From Cystobasidiomycetes sp. EMM_F5 (lineage: Eukaryota): a stretch of DNA of 64,000 nucleotides. The position numbers and the translations under genes are program-made. The stretch is taken from NCBI GenBank assembly GCA_051047955.1, contig JBPGPT010000015.1, positions 124,001 through 188,000 of the forward strand, written 5' to 3'. The notes under the pieces were generated by a model. That model was not told the DNA's origin. It ran no database searches and saw only the letters and a program-made list of their open reading frames with translations. Numbering within the stretch: position 1 is the first letter of the stretch; each line of letters opens with the position of its first letter. Shown in pieces: positions 37,549 through 50,223 of the stretch.

Positions 37549-39831
37549 ATGGCTTCCAAGATAGCCTCACGGACTGGAGAACCATACACTGAACAGCTCG
37601 GCAAGGTAGCCACCCAAGGCCAAGATGCTGTTGCTGAAAAAGTCGGCAATGAAGTCGTCGACCTCGCTGCGGAGAATACCGAGCGAGAGCGTCAGATGGG
37701 TGTCAGAGAAGCCTTCAAGCGGTACCCAAAGGCTGTCATGTTTTCCATTATCTTTTCAACGTGAGCTCTTCTTCCTGATGATGTTCGACCTTTACAAGGC
37801 TAACGCCCTCGTCCGTTCAGTGCCATCGTCATGGAAGGTTACGACTTAGTACGACATCAATTATTGCTGGCAGTGGTACACTGACTGACTCCAGTATGAC
37901 GACTAGGTCATGATCAACAGCTTCTACGCTCAAGATCAATTCAATGAGAAGGTGAGAGCGTCTTCTGAATATTCTGAAGATCAGCAGCGATCTCCGACTG
38001 ACCCAGCTGCTTCCTTCTGCCAGTTTGGTGACTACAATGCTGCTAAGGGTACATACGGTCTCACAGCCGCCTGGCAGTCTGGTCTTTCGAACGCAGTCCA
38101 AGTCGGATCCATCATCGGTCTGATGTGCAACGGTATCTTGACTGACAAGTTCGGATACCGCCGCACCATGTTGGGCGCATTGGCACTCATGATGTGCTTC
38201 ATCTTCATCACCTTTTTCGCCGTCAACCTTACCATGCTTCTGATTGGTGAAGCACTCTGCGGTCTTCCATGGGGCGTTTTCCAGACTTTGACTGTCGCCT
38301 TCGCCTCTGAGGTTTGCCCTGTTCCCCTTCGACCTTTCCTTACCACCTATGTCAATCTAGTAGGCATTATTTGTCTGAAATCCATTACGATCGGCTGATG
38401 TGATTGGCTTCTCGCCAGTGCTGGGTTATGGGCCAGTTCATTGCATCCGGTGTATTAAGAGGTTTCCTGCCAGTGCAGGGCGAGTGGGCTTTCCGTGGAC
38501 CCTTTGCCATACAATGGCTTTGGCCTGTAAGTACGAGATGCCCCGCATGTGCAGCGCACCTTTGACTGAATCTCTTTGCTGCATTAGATTCCTATTGCAA
38601 TTGGAGTATTCCTTTCTCCTGAATCTCCATGGTGGCTCGTGCGAAAGGGGCGGATTGACGAGGCTAAGAGATCGCTACGTCGCTTCACCGGCGAAGCCGA
38701 AAGCGAAGCCGATATCGAGAAGACCGTTGCGATGATTCAAGCGACCAATGAACTCGAAAAGACCTACAAGGAAGGAACCTCTTACCTCGACTGCTTCCGT
38801 GGCGTTGATCTCCGACGAACAGAGATTTCTTCGCTCGTGTGGTTCATCCAGTCGTGGTGCGGCGCCTGTAAGTCACGATCTTCTGTGATGCACTCGTGGA
38901 CAATCAATTCACGTCGTCTCCATGACAGCCTTCATGGGATACAGTACCTACTTCTACCGACAGGCCGGTCTCCCGCAGGAACGCGCTTTTGATATGTCAA
39001 TGGTACAGTACGCGCTCGGAGCTATCGGTACCGTGAGTCTCAATACTTCCAGATCTTAAGTCGCAAACAGCCTAAGCTGACCCCTGAGTAATCTGTAGAT
39101 CGCGTCGTGGGGCGTAATGAGGAAGTTCGGCCGACGAACCCTCTACCTTTGGGGTATGTACGGGATGCTTGTATTGTACGTCTCCTCTCATGTCTGCCCA
39201 CACTGAACTGACGTTTCATCACTGTTTCAGAATGGTTGTCATCGGTGGATTGGGCTTCGCACACCCTGAAAGCAATTCGGGCATTGGCTGGGCCATCGGA
39301 ACTGGTCTCTTGCTTTTCACTTTCGTCTATGATCTCACAGTCGGACCTGTGTGCTACTGCCTGGTCGCCGAATTGTCGTCGACCCGTCTCCGAGCAAAGA
39401 CTGTCGTACTCTCCCGAAATTTGTACAACATTGGCGGTATCGTCAACAACGTCATTACTCCTAATCAACTCAACCCTGATGCATGGAACTGGTAAGCTCC
39501 CAACCTTATTCCTGATCCTCCTGGCAGATGCGCTAAGCGCTGCTCGTCATGTCCAGGGGTGCCAAGGCAGGACTATTCTGGGCTGGTATGCTCGTACTTT
39601 GTGAGTGGCAAAGGTCGTTCTCGGCGCTTGCCTTGGCTAACGCGCATCTCAGGCATTATCTGGACTTACTTCCGCCTACCGGAGCCTATGGGTCGCACTT
39701 ACGGCGAGCTGGACGTCTTGTTCGAGCACAAGGTGCCAGCACGCAAGTTCGCCACCACCCAAGTCGAATCCTTCGGTTATGACTCGTCTGCTCGTGATGA
39801 CGAGAAGGAGATGCCAGTCCACATTCACTAA
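37549..39831 (+). CDS. Maltose/alpha-glucoside permease (MFS sugar porter, multi-exon)
   Basis: REAFKRYPKA, IVMEGYD, AAWQSGLSN, DKFGYRRT, GEALCGLPWGVFQTL..ASEVCP, PESPWWLVRKG, VGPVCYCLVAELSSTRLRAKT, PEPMGRTYGELDVLFE. Confidence 0.93.
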
Positions 39832-40246
39832 TGACGGACTGATAGCGGCGAATTCCCTACTACTTTAATTACGGTCAGGTTTGATCCTTACATTTCATAA
39901 CCAAGTTGATGTAATACATCAGCGTTGTTTGCATTCGTTCATAGCAAGGCATTTGTATAGCCGAGGGAAATCAGCACGTACGATCATCAACATTGTGTCT
40001 GCAAGGTCTGGGTTAAGTTTGAAGTTGCATTAGTAATACAACGTCGGAAGCCGCAAGTTGCTAGCATTTTGACTAAGGTTACAAGCATTTGGGTTATTTG
40101 CGGTCACTAATACCTTGAAATGAAATGGATTATTGTTACATTCGCATAAATACCAGAGGGACCGGACGACGATGAATGCACTAGCATAAGAACCCGTAAA
40201 CCCGTAGACTGATGACCTGAAAAAGCGCTGAATGCATTCCAAAAGA

Positions 40247-41831
40247 CTAGCGCTTGCCGAAATAGTGTTCAATCGTAGCAAAACGTTTGGCGCCTTTTGA
40301 CGGGGACCTAGGGACCAGAATACCAGAAGTACCGCTGCCACTGGCGACGGTGGAGCCTTGATTGAAAGGTCTGAAACGATTACCTTTGTTGACATGATGG
40401 AGAGAGTGGATGAAATTGAACATATTCGCTACGTCGTAGACGGATTTGCCCTGTTGCTTGGAGTCTTCAGAAAGAGCTGGCCAGATCCATCGGGTGTATT
40501 CTTGTCCATTGCATCTGTTGAGCCGCTTGGCAATGTTCTCCAGGTTGAAGTCCGGTAGATAGATCTTCTTGTTAGGATCAAGCTCTGAATCGGGATTACG
40601 AGAAAAGATCTCGTTTACAAGTCGGACCTGGGGATCATAGTATGTGAAGGATGATGCTTCGATGTCGTCTGGAAGATAAGCCTCGAGCGATAACATACGA
40701 TGGTATTCAGGACGTGAGGTTCCATAGCCAACGACCATAGCATCGTCGGACCAAGCTTTCCATTCTTCCATTGTAAGCGCCCAAGAACGCAATCTGGCAT
40801 CGGGCACAACGCCTTTGATGGTCTTGAGAGTGTCCCACCTGTTCGCACCGTCGACTCGTGTCAAGCAGGTCCATTCGTAGATATTGGAGGCTTCGTTGCC
40901 TTCCTGTATCGCGTTACATTCTGAGTCGATGTACTTGGCCTCCAGAGACGGCAGCGCTACTCTGCCCAGAATGCTTCGGATGTAGTCGTGCTTGAGATCC
41001 AAGGCTTCAAAAATGCTGATGGTTGGGGCCGGGAGCTCAGCGTTGTTTCTTCCTTTGCTGTACAATGTACCATCGTGACATCTGTCACAAGTGGTGGAGC
41101 CCTGTCGTGCTGGACTAGCACAGCTCGTACACTCGCCTCGTGCAATTTTGGCTTGCCGGCGTTCCTCAATGACTCCATTGTCCCGAAGCTGACGTTGTGA
41201 TCCGGAATTAGCCAGGTTACCAACGAGAACTTTACTTGCGCTACATACCTCTTGCATGCGGTCTCGCTCCTTCTCAAGGCAGCCTTCGCATTGTGTACGA
41301 TCTTCTTTGACGGGTTCTCCGCAACGCGTGCACACTCCGCTGAGTTTGCGCTTGTTCACTCTCTGTAAAATCAACTGAGCATCATCGTAGGTTGACTAGC
41401 TGTCAGATGCACTCACTTCCACGCTCCCTTCAATCATCGCCTCCAAGTGGAAGTCACAGAGAACGTGACCTTCTTTCGGGGGTTCTGTACACTTGACGCA
41501 TTGATGCTGCGCTACTTTGTTGTCGAAGTACTGCATGGCATCGTCAAGTCTTGCTAACCATCCTGATCAATGAGCATCATACCTTCTTGTTATTGTCCGA
41601 CTGTACCTGGCGATGCTTGGGGCAGTAGCTGTAGCCATCCTCAGCCGGCTCCGTACAGTCAATGCACCGGTTCTCCGCCTTCAGCTCGGCGCGACGAGCC
41701 TTCTTCCGTGCATTAATCGAGTCCATACATTCACGACAGCGAATCTTGCCCGGTACGGGTGTGCCGCCGCAGTTTGGACACAGATTCTTCTCGCGACGTT
41801 CAGTCTCAGCCCTCCGGAGTTTGAGTCCCAT
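40247..41831 (-). CDS. Orphan protein: five C-x2-C-x10-C-x2-C/H repeats + putative DEDD-like nuclease domain + PIP-like C-terminus
   Basis: Exons ~41831-41583, 41530-41417, 41362-41249, 41188-40247 with canonical splice sites; repeats read directly. The domain assignment is inference. Confidence 0.7.
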
Positions 41832-41985
41832 AGTGTGCGAATGGATATGTGGTTACGAGGAGGATGTGCTGGATGCGAGAGTGAAATGACGAGAGGCAAG
41901 AGACCATCTTAGCAACGCCCAGGCCGTCTGGATTTGGGCGTCAGCCTGCAGGGGTTTGATTAGTAGGCCAAGTCGATGTCGAGGA

Positions 41986-42001
41986 GGGGGGGGGGGGGGG
42001 G
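41986..42001 (+). repeat. Poly-G tract (16 G)
   Basis: Homopolymer read directly. Confidence 0.95.
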
Positions 42002-42060
42002 CACAGGGGTCGCCACCCAATCAGTGAATGGGCTTTGGTCATAGTTAACCCGCATCTCAG

Positions 42061-43247
42061 GCTTGTTCGCAAGGGCCGCATCGATGAAGCCAAGAGGTCG
42101 CTACGCCGATTCACTGGTGACGCAGAGAGCGATGCCGATATTGAAAAGACCGTAGCAATGATCCAGGCTACCAATGAGCTCGAGAAGACTTACAAGGAGG
42201 GAACCTCTTACTTCGACTGCTTCCGTGGTGTCGATCTCCGCCGAACTGAAGTATCCTCCCTCGTGTGGTTCATCCAGTCGTGGTGTGGTGCCTGTAAGCA
42301 TCACGATGGCATTTAATAATTGATCACTCTGACGCGGAACTCCTACAGCTTTCATGGGTTACAGTACATACTTTTACCGACAGGCAGGTCTCCCCCAGGA
42401 GCGTGCCTTTGACATGTCGATGGTACAATACGCCCTCGGAGCCATTGGCACCGTGAGTTTCAGCTGCGGTTCATACAATAACAAACTCAAGCTCACCCGG
42501 TCTCGTGCAGATGGCTTCATGGGGCGTTATGAGGAAGTTTGGACGACGAACGCTGTATTTGTGGGGCCAATATGCCATGTTGGTACTTATGGTCGTGAGT
42601 TCATACTGGTCTGCATTGTCTACCTCAGTATCTGAGCATAGGCTGCATGCATTCAGGTCATCGGCGGTCTAGGCTTTGCTCATCCTGAAACAAACTCGGG
42701 CATTGGCTGGGCCATCGGAACTGGTCTCCTCCTTTTCACTTTCGTCTACGATCTGACCGTCGGACCTGTATGCTACTGCCTTGTAGCTGAGCTGTCGTCC
42801 ACTCGCCTTCGAGCAAAGACTGTCGTGCTCTCTCGAAACTTATACAATATCGGTGGTATTGTCAACAACGTCATCACCCCGAATCAGCTGAACCCTGATG
42901 CATGGAACTGGTAAGCTCGAGCTACTTTCCGCTTTTCCCCCCACTATATTGACACCTATTCTCTCTTCACTAGGGGTGCAAAAGCCGGTCTATTCTGGGC
43001 TGGTATGCTTGTCCTCTGTAAGCGTTATTGGCAATGCTCTCCACGCACTAAGGCTAACTCGTAATTAGGCATCGCCTGGACTTACTTCCGCCTACCGGAG
43101 CCTATGGGTCGCACTTACGGCGAGTTGGACGTCTTGTTCGAGCACAAGGTCCCCGCACGCAAGTTCGCCACCACTCAGGTCGAATCGTTCGGTTATGACT
43201 CTTCTGCCCGTGACGATGAAAAGGAGATGCCCGTCCACATTCACTAA
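42061..43247 (+). pseudogene. 5'-truncated paralog of the maltose permease (C-terminal half only, exons intact)
   Basis: Exon-by-exon match to 38636-39831 (LVRKGRIDEAKRSLRRF...EKEMPVHIH*); no N-terminal half found upstream. Confidence 0.75.
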
Positions 43248-43606
43248 ATGATGGAATGATAGCGGCGGATTCCCTACTACTTTAATTATGGTCAGGTTTA
43301 TTGCATTTCCGGACGAGCTTGGTGTAATACATCGGCATTATTAGCATTCGTTCATAATTTGGCAACGGCATATGTATAGCCATGGTGATTAGCTCTGATC
43401 GTCAATACGAAAGGTGTCTGTTTTCATAGGATCTTTGAAGCGCCATTCGTGCTGAACACTCCTCTTCCGTGGTGGCCATATATCGTGAAAGCCAATGTAA
43501 GCGGCGTAAGCGATAGCAGGGGCGAGTATAGTCAACACATGAAAGAGTTTTCTTGCAATTCTCGCTATCATTTATACAGATGGACAGGCAGGTCTCACAG
43601 AAGCAC

Positions 43607-45417: not shown

Positions 45418-47672
<2,255 letters not shown>

Positions 47673-47823: not shown

Positions 47824-50223
47824 CTACAATGCATAAAGATACACACGTCCCTCCCATGGGGCTAGAACAGACTCGGCAGGTTCCGATACAGCGCTTGCCA
47901 ACAATTTCGGCTTGCAAGCTGCGCCAATCTGCGGAAACGAGAAAGGCTGCTCCTGCTCTGTAAAATTCAGAGCTACGAAGAGCAAACTCTTGTCTTTGCC
48001 CGTATAGGAAGACTTCTTGAAGAGGAACGTCTTGTCATTTGCGGCGTCTACCACATCGAAGCGTCCGAAAGTGAAAATATCGGGGTGTTGTTTGCGCCAG
48101 TCGAGCATCTTTCGCCAGAGATTGAGCGTGCTATTGACGTCGTGCTCCTGTTGCTCAACATTGATGTCCGTGTAGTGATCGCTCACACGCATCCTACATA
48201 CATTTGCATTAGCATCTGCACGTTAGTGTTCTTTTAAGTACTGGCTCACCAAGTCTTCTCAGCAGTAGAGAAGCCTGCCTGAGTATTTGCACTCCACTGC
48301 ATCGGGGTCCGAGCATGATCACGCGCTACTTTTTGCAGGCCAAAGATTGCACCTTCGACAGTGAATCCAGCATCTAGTCCGTTCTCAAGGTCTTTGGTGA
48401 AGCGCTTCCAGTATATTGTAGTGGCAGGATCACGGTACTCGTCTAACGGCCACGACTTTGGCATGTTTGGTGTCCTGCATATTCATATCTCGTTAGACAC
48501 GCTAGTACCTCATAAAAAGCCATACTGACCCGATCTCCTGACCTGTGAGCATGATACGTTAGCCACTTTCTACCAAGTACGGTGATACCTATACTCGCCT
48601 TGGTACAGCAGAAGTGTCCCGCTGAGAGAAGCCATGAAGATGCAGAGCATTTTTGCGCTGACTTCCCTATATTCAACTGAATCATTGCCGAAACGGCTCA
48701 CGCTCCGAGCTTGATCTGAAGGACGCGGTTCAGTCGAATATCAAGACATCAATGCTTACCATACCATGTGACTCAAAATAGGTCGCCAACCATGCGCTGA
48801 ACTTGGGATCAGCTAGGTCCTGCTCCATCTTGGTCATGGCCTTGATATCTGGCAAATAAGGTTCCTTGTGATACATGTAGTATCGGCCATCGAGACCTTC
48901 AGAGGTGGACGTCAGTCAGCTTATAACCTCCGAGAAGTGTGGTTAGGAGTCCACATACCGAAATGGTCAAGATAGACGGTGTTAACTGTTTGGATTTTGG
49001 TTTAGGCCATTCCTCCAGCACCGTATACGCAATACTCACATCGAATAGCCATGTCATACTTTTTCTGATGCGCAGCAAGGTACTTGAGCATAGTTTCGTT
49101 TGTTGTTTTGCCTGGCAGTTCCGCAATGGTGACGGCACCGTACTTGGCGAAAGTTTGAGCATTGAGTTCCTGCAGGTAAGTATGCAGGTTGGGTCCTTCG
49201 TGCATGCGATGCAGCGCAGGCTGCACGTAGTTGAGCTCATCGACTATCTCAACATCCTCAAATGCATGCTTAGAGTACAAGCCGGAGACATCAACGCGGA
49301 AACCATCCACGCCCCGCTCCAGCCAGAATGTGACTGCCTCCTCGTAGATTGCCTTGCGAACCTCCTTGTCCTCCCAATTCAGATCGGGTTGCTAAAATCT
49401 CATTAGCCGGTCATTTATTGCTCGTCGCCTCACGTCAACCTACTTCGACAGTGAACAAATGAAGATAGTATTCGCCCGTGCGTTCGCTATATTCCCAGAC
49501 TGAATCGCCAAATACAGCCCGCCAGTTTGTGGGAGGCATCCGATTTCCATCTGCATCATAACGAGGTGGTCGCCAATGATAGAACTTTCTGTACGGATTG
49601 TCTTTTGATTTCTCGGACTCAAGAAACCAGCGATGCAAGTGACTGGTGTGGTTGATGACTGGCGAACTCTGTTAGTGGAATACTTGAATGATTCATAAAG
49701 AACATACCGAGATCAAACAAAACTTTGAGGCCCCGGTCATGACAACCTTTGATAATTGCATCGGCATCTGCCAGACTGCCATATCTAGGGTCTACAGCCC
49801 TGTAGTCGCTGATATCGTAGCCGCCACTATGTTCCACATATCAGGGACGACGATATCCGTGCGCATATACGCTGACATACTCGACGTTCGGAGTCTCGAA
49901 GAATGGAGAGATCTGTTTTTAGGCACGCAAGTTAGCTATAACAGTAAGGATACGCTGCGTTGGCTTACCCAGACGGCATCGACCCCGAGACTCTTCACAT
50001 AATCCAATTTGCTGAGAATGCCTTGAAGGTCCCCAAAGCCGTCTCCGTTACTATCCTTAAACGAAGCTTGAAAGACATTCAGTACTCCTGGGACATCACA
50101 GAACAGTAATTTACCTGGATAAATCTACGCAGGGACTCAGCACACTCTCCCATTGCACTCAAAAAGATAGTGACCCACTTGATATACGCATGCGCTTTTC
50201 CACCATTGCTGTGCAGCATCCAT
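47824..50223 (-). CDS. GH13 alpha-glucosidase 3, isomaltase-type signature (multi-exon)
   Basis: [49 protein letters not shown]. Confidence 0.92.

Follow-up and report, generated by a model that had tools for sequence, protein, structure and literature searches.

The window analysed here, a stretch of 64,000 nucleotides of Cystobasidiomycetes sp. EMM_F5 (GenBank assembly GCA_051047955.1, contig JBPGPT010000015.1, positions 124,001 to 188,000 of the forward strand), carries on its minus strand a four-exon gene whose predicted product combines five zinc ribbons, a C-terminal domain with a DnaQ-like fold, and a disordered tail that ends in a motif resembling the PCNA-interacting peptide (PIP) box. 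Our preferred reading, to which we assign a probability of about 0.55, is that the gene encodes a divergent DnaQ-like (DEDD) 3'-5' exonuclease of a small fungal-type family, provided with a zinc-ribbon tether and a PIP-like tail. We regard this family as an unnamed and not previously classified branch of the known DnaQ/DEDD superfamily. All nucleotide positions are those of the window and are collected in Table 1; residue numbers of the domain and of the tail refer to P0001, the 313-residue product of the last exon, whereas the starts of the ribbon units are numbered in the spliced protein of 472 residues.

Fold and putative active site of the C-terminal domain

Prediction of the last-exon product with AlphaFold2 (AF2) from its single sequence gave an unusable model (pLDDT 33.9). 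The model computed with a 26-row alignment of the family reached a mean pLDDT of 85.0 and a pTM of 0.75, the five models ranging from 83.6 to 85.0 and most blocks of the core lying at 94–98. When this model was compared with the PDB by Foldseek, RNase T, TREX1, ExoI, and a DnaQ domain appeared on top, with probabilities of 0.97–1.00 and weak E-values of ~1e-3, followed at lower probability by Ydc2, Metnase, RuvC, and terminase nucleases. The search with VIA-align, which is independent of Foldseek, covered 48,161 chains and placed 27 of them at Z ≥ 8; the best 50 rows are all DnaQ-like exonuclease or exonuclease-like domains. They are headed by ExoI (1fxx_A, Z 11.0, rmsd 3.3, 150 residues aligned), the exonuclease of DinG (9ii8_A, 10.4), and a TREX1 homolog (10.2), with the epsilon subunit of Pol III (1j53_A, 10.1), TREX1 itself (3u3y_B, 10.0), and T4 polymerase (1noy_A, 9.4) coming next. 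VIA-align run on the best 1000 chains of Foldseek agrees, with 224 chains at Z ≥ 8. A language-model look-up of P0006, one of the relatives described below, returned only RNase_H_2 / RNase_T exonuclease clusters (0.80–0.88), a result to be read at the level of a lead.

The structural matches span residues ~81–272 of the model. Residues 50–80, which include the strongly conserved sequence LPxPxxSIFEAxDLKH, are predicted to form two helices specific to the family. A DnaQ-like fold of the C-terminal domain is, on the strength of this model, very probable. An RNase H-like DEDD fold had been proposed for this part of the protein in a preliminary description of the gene, made from the sequence, and the check by AlphaFold with Foldseek and VIA-align bears that proposal out.

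Acidic residues of the kind that a DEDD enzyme would require are conserved in the modelled domain. Among the members covering the respective columns, D88 is present in 14 of 14, E90 in 14 of 14, and E105 in 14 of 15; position 161 is Glu in 14, Asp in 5, and Gln in 1 of 20, with R164 kept in 21 of 22, and the last motif retains G247 (14 of 17), K248 (14 of 18), and D252 (12 of 14). The start of the alignment range with epsilon, residue 83 opposite residue 7, puts D88 and E90 on D12 and E14 of that protein, the numbering of which was checked on the E. coli sequence. The range starts 83 opposite 10, 81 opposite 11, and 83 opposite 107 put the same pair on what we take to be D15/E17 of ExoI, D18/E20 of TREX1, and D112/E114 of T4 polymerase, and the offsets in the β1 range presumably also match the Asp and Glu of RNase T and ExoX. 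At the other end, 265 opposite 180 puts D252 on D167 of epsilon, and the range ends 270 opposite 204 and 265 opposite 337 put it on what we assume to be D186 of ExoI and D324 of T4 polymerase, with K248 falling on Tyr320 of the latter; for TREX1 and RNase T the C-terminal offsets deviate by one to two residues. The equivalence of E161 to the Asp of ExoII is topological only. In the predicted structure, D88 and E90 are conserved at the position of ExoI, D252 at that of ExoIII, and E161 (or Asp) at the presumed position of ExoII, and a Lys is found at the position of the DEDDy tyrosine. The residues singled out in the preliminary description as ExoI, ExoII, and ExoIII motifs are the conserved ones, lie at the quoted places and follow the DEDD order, and the strings VVGYGTSRPEY, KSVYD, and the terminal ATIEHYFGKR before the stop codon (40250–40279) were located as it had quoted them.

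The closest structural counterparts are the DEDDh enzymes, in which a His stands five residues before the last Asp; in the DEDDy enzymes, a Tyr stands four residues before it. Comparison with DEDDh enzymes (ExoI, Pol III epsilon, TREX1/TREX2, RNase T, and the DinG exonuclease) reveals the same predicted fold over ~140–150 residues at Z 10–11, with the D-x-E motif ending β1, a putative ExoII acid opening the helix after β4, and the last helix carrying an Asp, so that order and topology are shared. However, no sequence or profile similarity to these enzymes is detectable, the ExoII residue is Glu in the 14 of 20 family members noted above, and Gly-Lys is present where the His would be expected. 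The family also adds the conserved two-helix N-terminal extension, the zinc-ribbon array, and the PIP-like tail. The DEDDy domains of family B and A polymerases (T4/RB69 gp43, Pol II, and T7 polymerase) share the fold as well, at Z 7.9–9.4, and presumably also the x-x3-D spacing of the fifth residue, given the place of K248 under a gapless alignment of the ends. The difference from them is that Lys replaces Tyr and that the protein stands alone, with no fusion to a polymerase.

Family, zinc ribbons and C-terminal tail

Among 1.84 billion representatives searched exhaustively with phmmer, the product of the gene and its relatives together number 26 at E ≤ 1e-3, 11 at E ≤ 1e-10, and three at E ≤ 1e-30. 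The 25 relatives of the last exon are distant, at 24–49% identity, and the best of them are P0006 (391 residues, 42% identity, E 6.9e-65) and P0007 (292 residues, 49%, E 3.1e-63). The gene had been called an orphan, which holds in that no Pfam family covers it and fails in that these distant relatives exist. Many of the relatives are fragments, of which five start at the same MYG and four stop at the same GK; we read these shared ends as the outcome of prokaryote-style gene calling on intron-containing eukaryotic genes. The family is accordingly small, unnamed, and apparently eukaryotic, of fungal type.

Other routes to the family gave little. A Pfam scan of P0001 listed no exonuclease family at E ≤ 10, its best entries being Methyltransf_12 (E 0.057) and HTH_38 (E 0.21), both far under cut-off, and searches with the last exon against PDB sequences, PADLOC, PHROGs, and NCBIfam returned no meaningful match. 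A word-indexed search of 5.8 billion clusters recovered the gene itself alone and, when the family alignment was used, the gene and P0029. The ESM Atlas, queried with P0001, gave no usable match. Longer, fused forms of the family were not found, which is weak evidence by itself. Two metagenome scans yielded 106 and 394 pattern matches, none of which tblastn confirmed as a relative, and a scan of viral contigs yielded no relative; among the viral structures of BFVD there were only generic RNase H / DEDD matches (E ≥ 7.9e-5) and no close viral relative. The literature returned by a full-text search, mostly at the level of abstracts, holds no description of the family, nor does the passage on exonucleases in 10.1101/2024.06.28.601215.

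The N-terminal part of the protein is built of zinc ribbons. The pattern C..C.{10}C..[CH] was found five times in the six frames of the window, and all five matches lie within this one gene, so that they cannot be attributed to chance; the five repeats with exact C-x2-C-x10-C-x2-C/H spacing that had been described from the sequence are all present and are unique to the gene in the window. Units 1–4, with their first residues at 18, 56, 94, and 132, keep a strict period of 38 residues, which spans introns 1 and 2. Exons 2 and 3 measure 114 nucleotides each, and every intron lies 10 residues past the last zinc ligand of a unit. The period, the 114-nucleotide exons, and the fixed position of the introns together mark the array as a module that arose through exon duplication, which also supports the intron model. 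The earlier remark that there is roughly one ribbon per exon is correct for exons 2 and 3, which hold one each; exon 1 holds two, and exon 4 combines the fifth unit with the whole C-terminal domain. The units share only 6–10 of 38 residues, chiefly the ligands together with one Pro and one Gly, which indicates that they are old, and two of the five end in His. Lys and Arg make up ~20% of the first 200 residues of the spliced protein, and the linker that precedes ribbon 5 is a helix in the AF2 model.

P0006 has three or more ribbons of this type and P0010 has one, in both cases with a ribbon 13 residues before LPxP (14 residues in the protein described here), so that the architecture of ribbon plus domain is a trait of the family. 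Pfam DZR, Zn_Ribbon_1, and RanBP2-type fingers resemble the ribbons in having two CxxC knuckles each. Membership in DZR was rejected, the Pfam match being below threshold, and so was membership in the RanBP2 type, for which the Pfam scan listed no zf-RanBP match.

The tail that follows the domain is rich in Ser and Gly, and its last part is predicted to be disordered. The consensus of the PIP box is Q-x2-[ILM]-x2-[FY]-[FY]. Its core, written as xxx[ILMV]xx[FY][FY], is present in four of the ten family tails that could be delimited, namely in this protein, in P0008 (three times), in P0025, and in P0030; shuffled tails contain a mean of 0.27 core matches, and none of 2000 shuffles reached four. 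The PIP-like tail lacking the Gln, as it had first been described, is therefore present and not a one-off. The Gln is found only in P0030, where a canonical QKTLKGFF is followed by KRK, and basic patches of the KRK type are located near the C terminus in P0008, P0025, P0030, and P0007. Binding of PCNA by the tail, as the motif suggests, is a tentative proposal that we hold at somewhat less than even odds.

Two further features of these tails were observed. P0008 and P0025 share a second short motif, FFLP ... [LM]PSF, and P0008, P0025, and P0030 carry an acidic SEDE/DDE patch at the very end, after the KRK-type basic patch. Both look like additional conserved linear motifs.

Proposed function and competing explanations

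In the mechanism that we envisage, the five zinc ribbons and the basic helical linkers between them would act as a nucleic-acid-binding tether, and the PIP-like motif of the disordered tail would recruit the protein to the nuclear sliding clamp. There, the domain would work as an active two-metal exonuclease that trims nucleotides from 3' ends, with the conserved Lys, in place of His or Tyr, positioning the water for attack, and recruitment by the clamp would make the protein a DNA-end or fork-associated trimming nuclease. Catalytic activity of the domain appears fairly probable, and DNA is slightly favoured over RNA as the substrate. The enzyme APE2, a 3'-5' exonuclease of the EEP fold, has both a PIP box and, for binding single-stranded DNA, a Zf-GRF zinc ribbon. 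The likeness to it is a functional analogy only, in that a 3'-5' nuclease is joined with a zinc-ribbon binder and a clamp motif; APE2 differs in its unrelated nuclease superfamily, in the opposite order of its domains, and in having one Zf-GRF in place of five plain ribbons.

Several observations weigh against this assignment. The residue equivalences given above were taken from the ends of alignment ranges and from secondary structure, with helices and strands assumed to be gapless, and not from coordinates. The fifth residue of DEDDh and DEDDy enzymes is absent, since the sequence G247-K248-S-V-Y-D252 offers no conserved His or Tyr at either position, the Tyr immediately before D252 not being conserved. 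The preliminary description had already missed an ExoIII His, correctly, a Lys being located four residues ahead of the Asp instead, and it had equally rightly noted a Glu in ExoII; this residue is Glu in the protein and in most members, and Asp in a quarter of the relatives. The alignment behind the AF2 model is shallow, with its 26 rows including many fragments. No Pfam family was found at E ≤ 0.01 in any of the 26 members, the only match of the family profile in the PDB was at chance level (E 2.2), and hhalign of the family (Neff 3.9) against E. coli epsilon gave a probability of 0.3%; the short stretch aligned at that probability is the ExoII region, shifted by one position. The structural matches include DnaQ-fold proteins that are not exonucleases, namely the exonuclease-like domain of Pol alpha, Exuperantia, and ESRP1. 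As to the tail, the pattern for the PIP core was written after the tails had been inspected, Phe303 stands in place of the Gln in this protein, among the five tails that reach 44 residues or more only that of P0007 (60 residues) has no PIP-like core, and FF/YF motifs also serve partners other than PCNA.

Next in probability, although we consider it rather unlikely, stands a role in RNA processing or silencing: like QIP, ERI-1, Rex, or ISG20, the protein would be a 3'-5' exonuclease of RNA, its ribbons binding RNA and its tail a partner other than PCNA. RNA-acting DEDD enzymes appear at similar Z (QIP 9.6, RNase T 9.0, REXO2 8.7, 3'hExo 8.3, and ISG20 8.0), and since VIA-align rows within one Z unit count as tied, the fold does not tell DNA-acting and RNA-acting enzymes apart. 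The spacing C-x2-C-x10-C-x2-C also characterizes RanBP2-type fingers, and some of these bind single-stranded RNA. Against this rival, the top matches are DNA exonucleases (ExoI, the DinG exonuclease, epsilon, TREX1/2), the Pfam scan lists no zf-RanBP match, and the tail has a PIP core, which in P0030 is the canonical Q-x2-L-x2-F-F with a basic patch. The missing His/Tyr and the Glu of ExoII would also be expected of a catalytically dead DnaQ-fold scaffold, and inactive DnaQ folds are among the matches; the upstream region of only 228 nucleotides before the truncated permease copy would suit a decaying, unexpressed gene. Such a loss of function seems improbable to us, because the Lys and the acidic residues at all four positions persist both here and in relatives of only 24–49% identity, while the frame of 472 codons is intact, with canonical splice sites.

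Of comparably low probability is the view, put forward in the preliminary description, that a selfish or mobile element, or a genome-defence cassette, inserted into the second permease, with the gene as its cargo or effector. The gene is placed exactly at the breakpoint between a permease and the 5'-truncated duplicate of that permease, it is unrelated to the sugar genes around it, and the recovery of 26 among 1.84 billion representatives, with the best relative 49% identical and a word-indexed search that finds the gene alone, fits a patchy distribution. However, there are no convincing terminal inverted repeats (TIRs), no second copy in the window, no recombinase among the neighbouring reading frames scanned, and no matches in PADLOC or PHROGs; the three introns are of host type, GC3 (GC content at third codon positions) is 0.575 against 0.48–0.57 in the neighbours, and a breakpoint in this duplication-rich locus requires no transposon. 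Scarcely credible is a transposase of the DDE/RNase H fold whose N-terminal zinc fingers would form a DNA-binding array. Zinc fingers followed by an RNase H-like core are a common transposase layout, and the weak Foldseek matches include the transposase domain of Metnase (E 4.6e-3, probability 0.57) and RuvC/Ydc2, but the conserved D-x-E ... E ... K-x3-D is the DEDD pattern. The absence of transposases and integrases from the best 50 VIA-align rows of either run, together with the lack of TIRs, led us to reject this candidate.

The preferred reading, a DnaQ-like exonuclease with a zinc-ribbon tether and a PIP-like tail, should also be kept apart from a bolder and quite improbable proposal, by which the gene would be the first example of a 'DEDD-K' exonuclease family with Lys as the general base, lineage-restricted and patchy in fungi, PCNA-recruited and tethered by zinc ribbons, and travelling as a small gene cassette that lands at double-strand breaks or rearranging loci, with a fork- or break-associated, selfish or genome-defence role and not a housekeeping one. 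Although the DnaQ/DEDD superfamily has been charted thoroughly, this family escapes searches of Pfam, NCBIfam, PHROGs, PADLOC, and the sequences of the PDB, and it surfaced only through an exhaustive profile-free search and then structure prediction. It joins a proofreading-type nuclease domain, in which the putatively catalytic Lys is unusual, to a five-unit ribbon array with symmetrical 114-nucleotide exons and to a recurrent clamp-binding-like tail. If active and PCNA-binding, the protein would be a new accessory 3'-end-trimming nuclease for fungal replication and repair, and it would provide a natural test of Lys replacing His/Tyr in two-metal exonucleases as well. Should the family instead turn out to vary between strains and to occur in multiple copies, a new kind of small fungal cassette, mobile or defensive, would be indicated.

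Gene model and chromosomal setting

The window has ~51% GC and short GT..AG introns, and it is eukaryotic, of fungal type. Splicing of the four predicted exons gives a coding sequence of 1419 nucleotides with an intact frame for 472 residues, and removal of the introns is supported because it restores the exact 38-residue period of the ribbons. Intron 3 is in frame and contains no stop codon, and we infer its removal. Two observations were made on this intron. An isoform that retained it would be predicted to stay open, and P0005, a database protein, does read through the intron. If an AG lying 24 nucleotides further downstream were used instead, the spacing between ribbons 4 and 5 would shorten from 47 to 39 residues, near the 38-residue period. 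The gene has a GC content of 0.52, in line with that of its neighbours, and its three short canonical introns and neighbour-like GC3 are signs of a resident gene.

Table 1. Positions in the window of the gene, its parts, and the surrounding features
Feature	Position	Strand	Remarks
Whole gene	40247..41831	minus	four predicted exons; stop codon 40247-40249
Exons 1-4	41583-41831, 41417-41530, 41249-41362, 40247-41188	minus	predicted
Introns 1-3	41531-41582 (52 nt), 41363-41416 (54 nt), 41189-41248 (60 nt)	minus	predicted; all GT..AG
Zinc ribbon 1, CPNC-x10-CREC	41727..41780	minus	Pfam DZR below threshold: E 7.3e-4, 20.1 bits vs cut-off 27.3
Zinc ribbon 2, CIDC-x10-CPKH	41613..41666	minus	exact spacing
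Zinc ribbon 3, CVKC-x10-CDFH	41447..41500	minus	on 114-nt exon 2
Zinc ribbon 4, CTRC-x10-CEGC	41279..41332	minus	on 114-nt exon 3; Zn_Ribbon_1 below threshold: E 0.0015, 18.7 vs 25
Zinc ribbon 5, CTSC-x10-CDRC	41078..41131	minus	14 residues ahead of the conserved LPxP with which the predicted nuclease module begins
Nuclease module, P0001 residues 50-272	40373..41041	minus	predicted two-helix N-terminal extension (~50-80) and DnaQ-like exonuclease fold (~81-272)
ExoI-type D-x-E, D88-S89-E90 (YIDSE)	40919..40927	minus	putative; end of modelled strand β1 (85-91)
ExoII-type acid E161, motif YG-x2-[RK]-P-E-x2-R	40706..40708	minus	putative; opens modelled helix 160-169 after strand 151-153
ExoIII-type K-x3-D, K248-D252 (KSVYD)	40433..40447	minus	putative; start of modelled last helix 248-267
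Disordered Ser/Gly-rich tail, residues 273-313	40250..40372	minus	pLDDT <50 for 281-313
PIP-like motif FATIEHYF, residues 303-310, then GKR and stop	40259..40282	minus	core match, in disordered region
Unique 2.1-kb segment holding only this gene	39963..42059		the only copy in the window
G16 homopolymer (C16 on the gene strand)	41986..42001	plus	58 nt inside right junction, ~155 nt upstream of the gene ATG
Complete Sugar_tr permease	~37.9-39.83 kb	plus	
Repeat copy A: permease 3' half and ~130 nt downstream	38634..39962	plus	
Repeat copy B: 5'-truncated permease duplicate	42060..43381	plus	77.6% identical to copy A
GH13 alpha-glucosidase genes	~34-36.5, 45.4-47.1, 47.8-49.4, 50.7-52.8 kb	minus	
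TauD-family gene	43.7-45.3 kb	minus	

The gene occupies a unique segment between the two copies of a direct repeat (38634–39962 and 42060–43381), which is the sole sizeable DNA repeat in the window. The homology of copy B begins inside an exon, at the stretch LVRKGRIDEAK, and its 5' half is missing. The gene had been described as unrelated to sugar metabolism and placed where the second permease lost its 5' half, and the order of permease, gene, and 5'-truncated copy bears out that placement. The further suggestion of a mobile, selfish, or defence origin did not gain support from the searches for TIRs and for copies in the window, from PADLOC, PHROGs, and GC3, or from the best 50 VIA-align rows, which contain no transposase fold. 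The ends of the segment have no convincing terminal inverted repeats, the best pair spanning them (13 nucleotides at 85%) being at chance level, and no transposase, integrase, or captain-type gene was found among the neighbouring open reading frames (ORFs) scanned. The locus has old duplications of its own, with four GH13 genes and two permease copies, so that the breakpoint needs no transposon. Taken as a whole, the gene has the appearance of a resident fungal gene with introns, in a MAL-type sugar locus prone to rearrangement, and not that of a demonstrable mobile element.

Some minor features of the locus may be added. The perfect G16 tract (Table 1) is an unusual feature at a rearrangement joint. 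The truncated permease copy keeps open exon-sized frames (42333–42635, 42642–42914, and 43065–43247) parallel to those of the complete copy. Rfam and tRNA scans of the window detected no RNA genes. A tandem 8-mer, AACCCGTA repeated twice at 40191–40206 in the presumed 3' untranslated region of the gene, is probably trivial. The GH13 (maltase-like) copies form an old tandem array. Of the three copies downstream only short ORF pieces are seen, and similarity at the DNA level has almost vanished among the copies, the sole match being that of 46739–47082 to 49289–49629 (72.7%); some of them may be pseudogenes.

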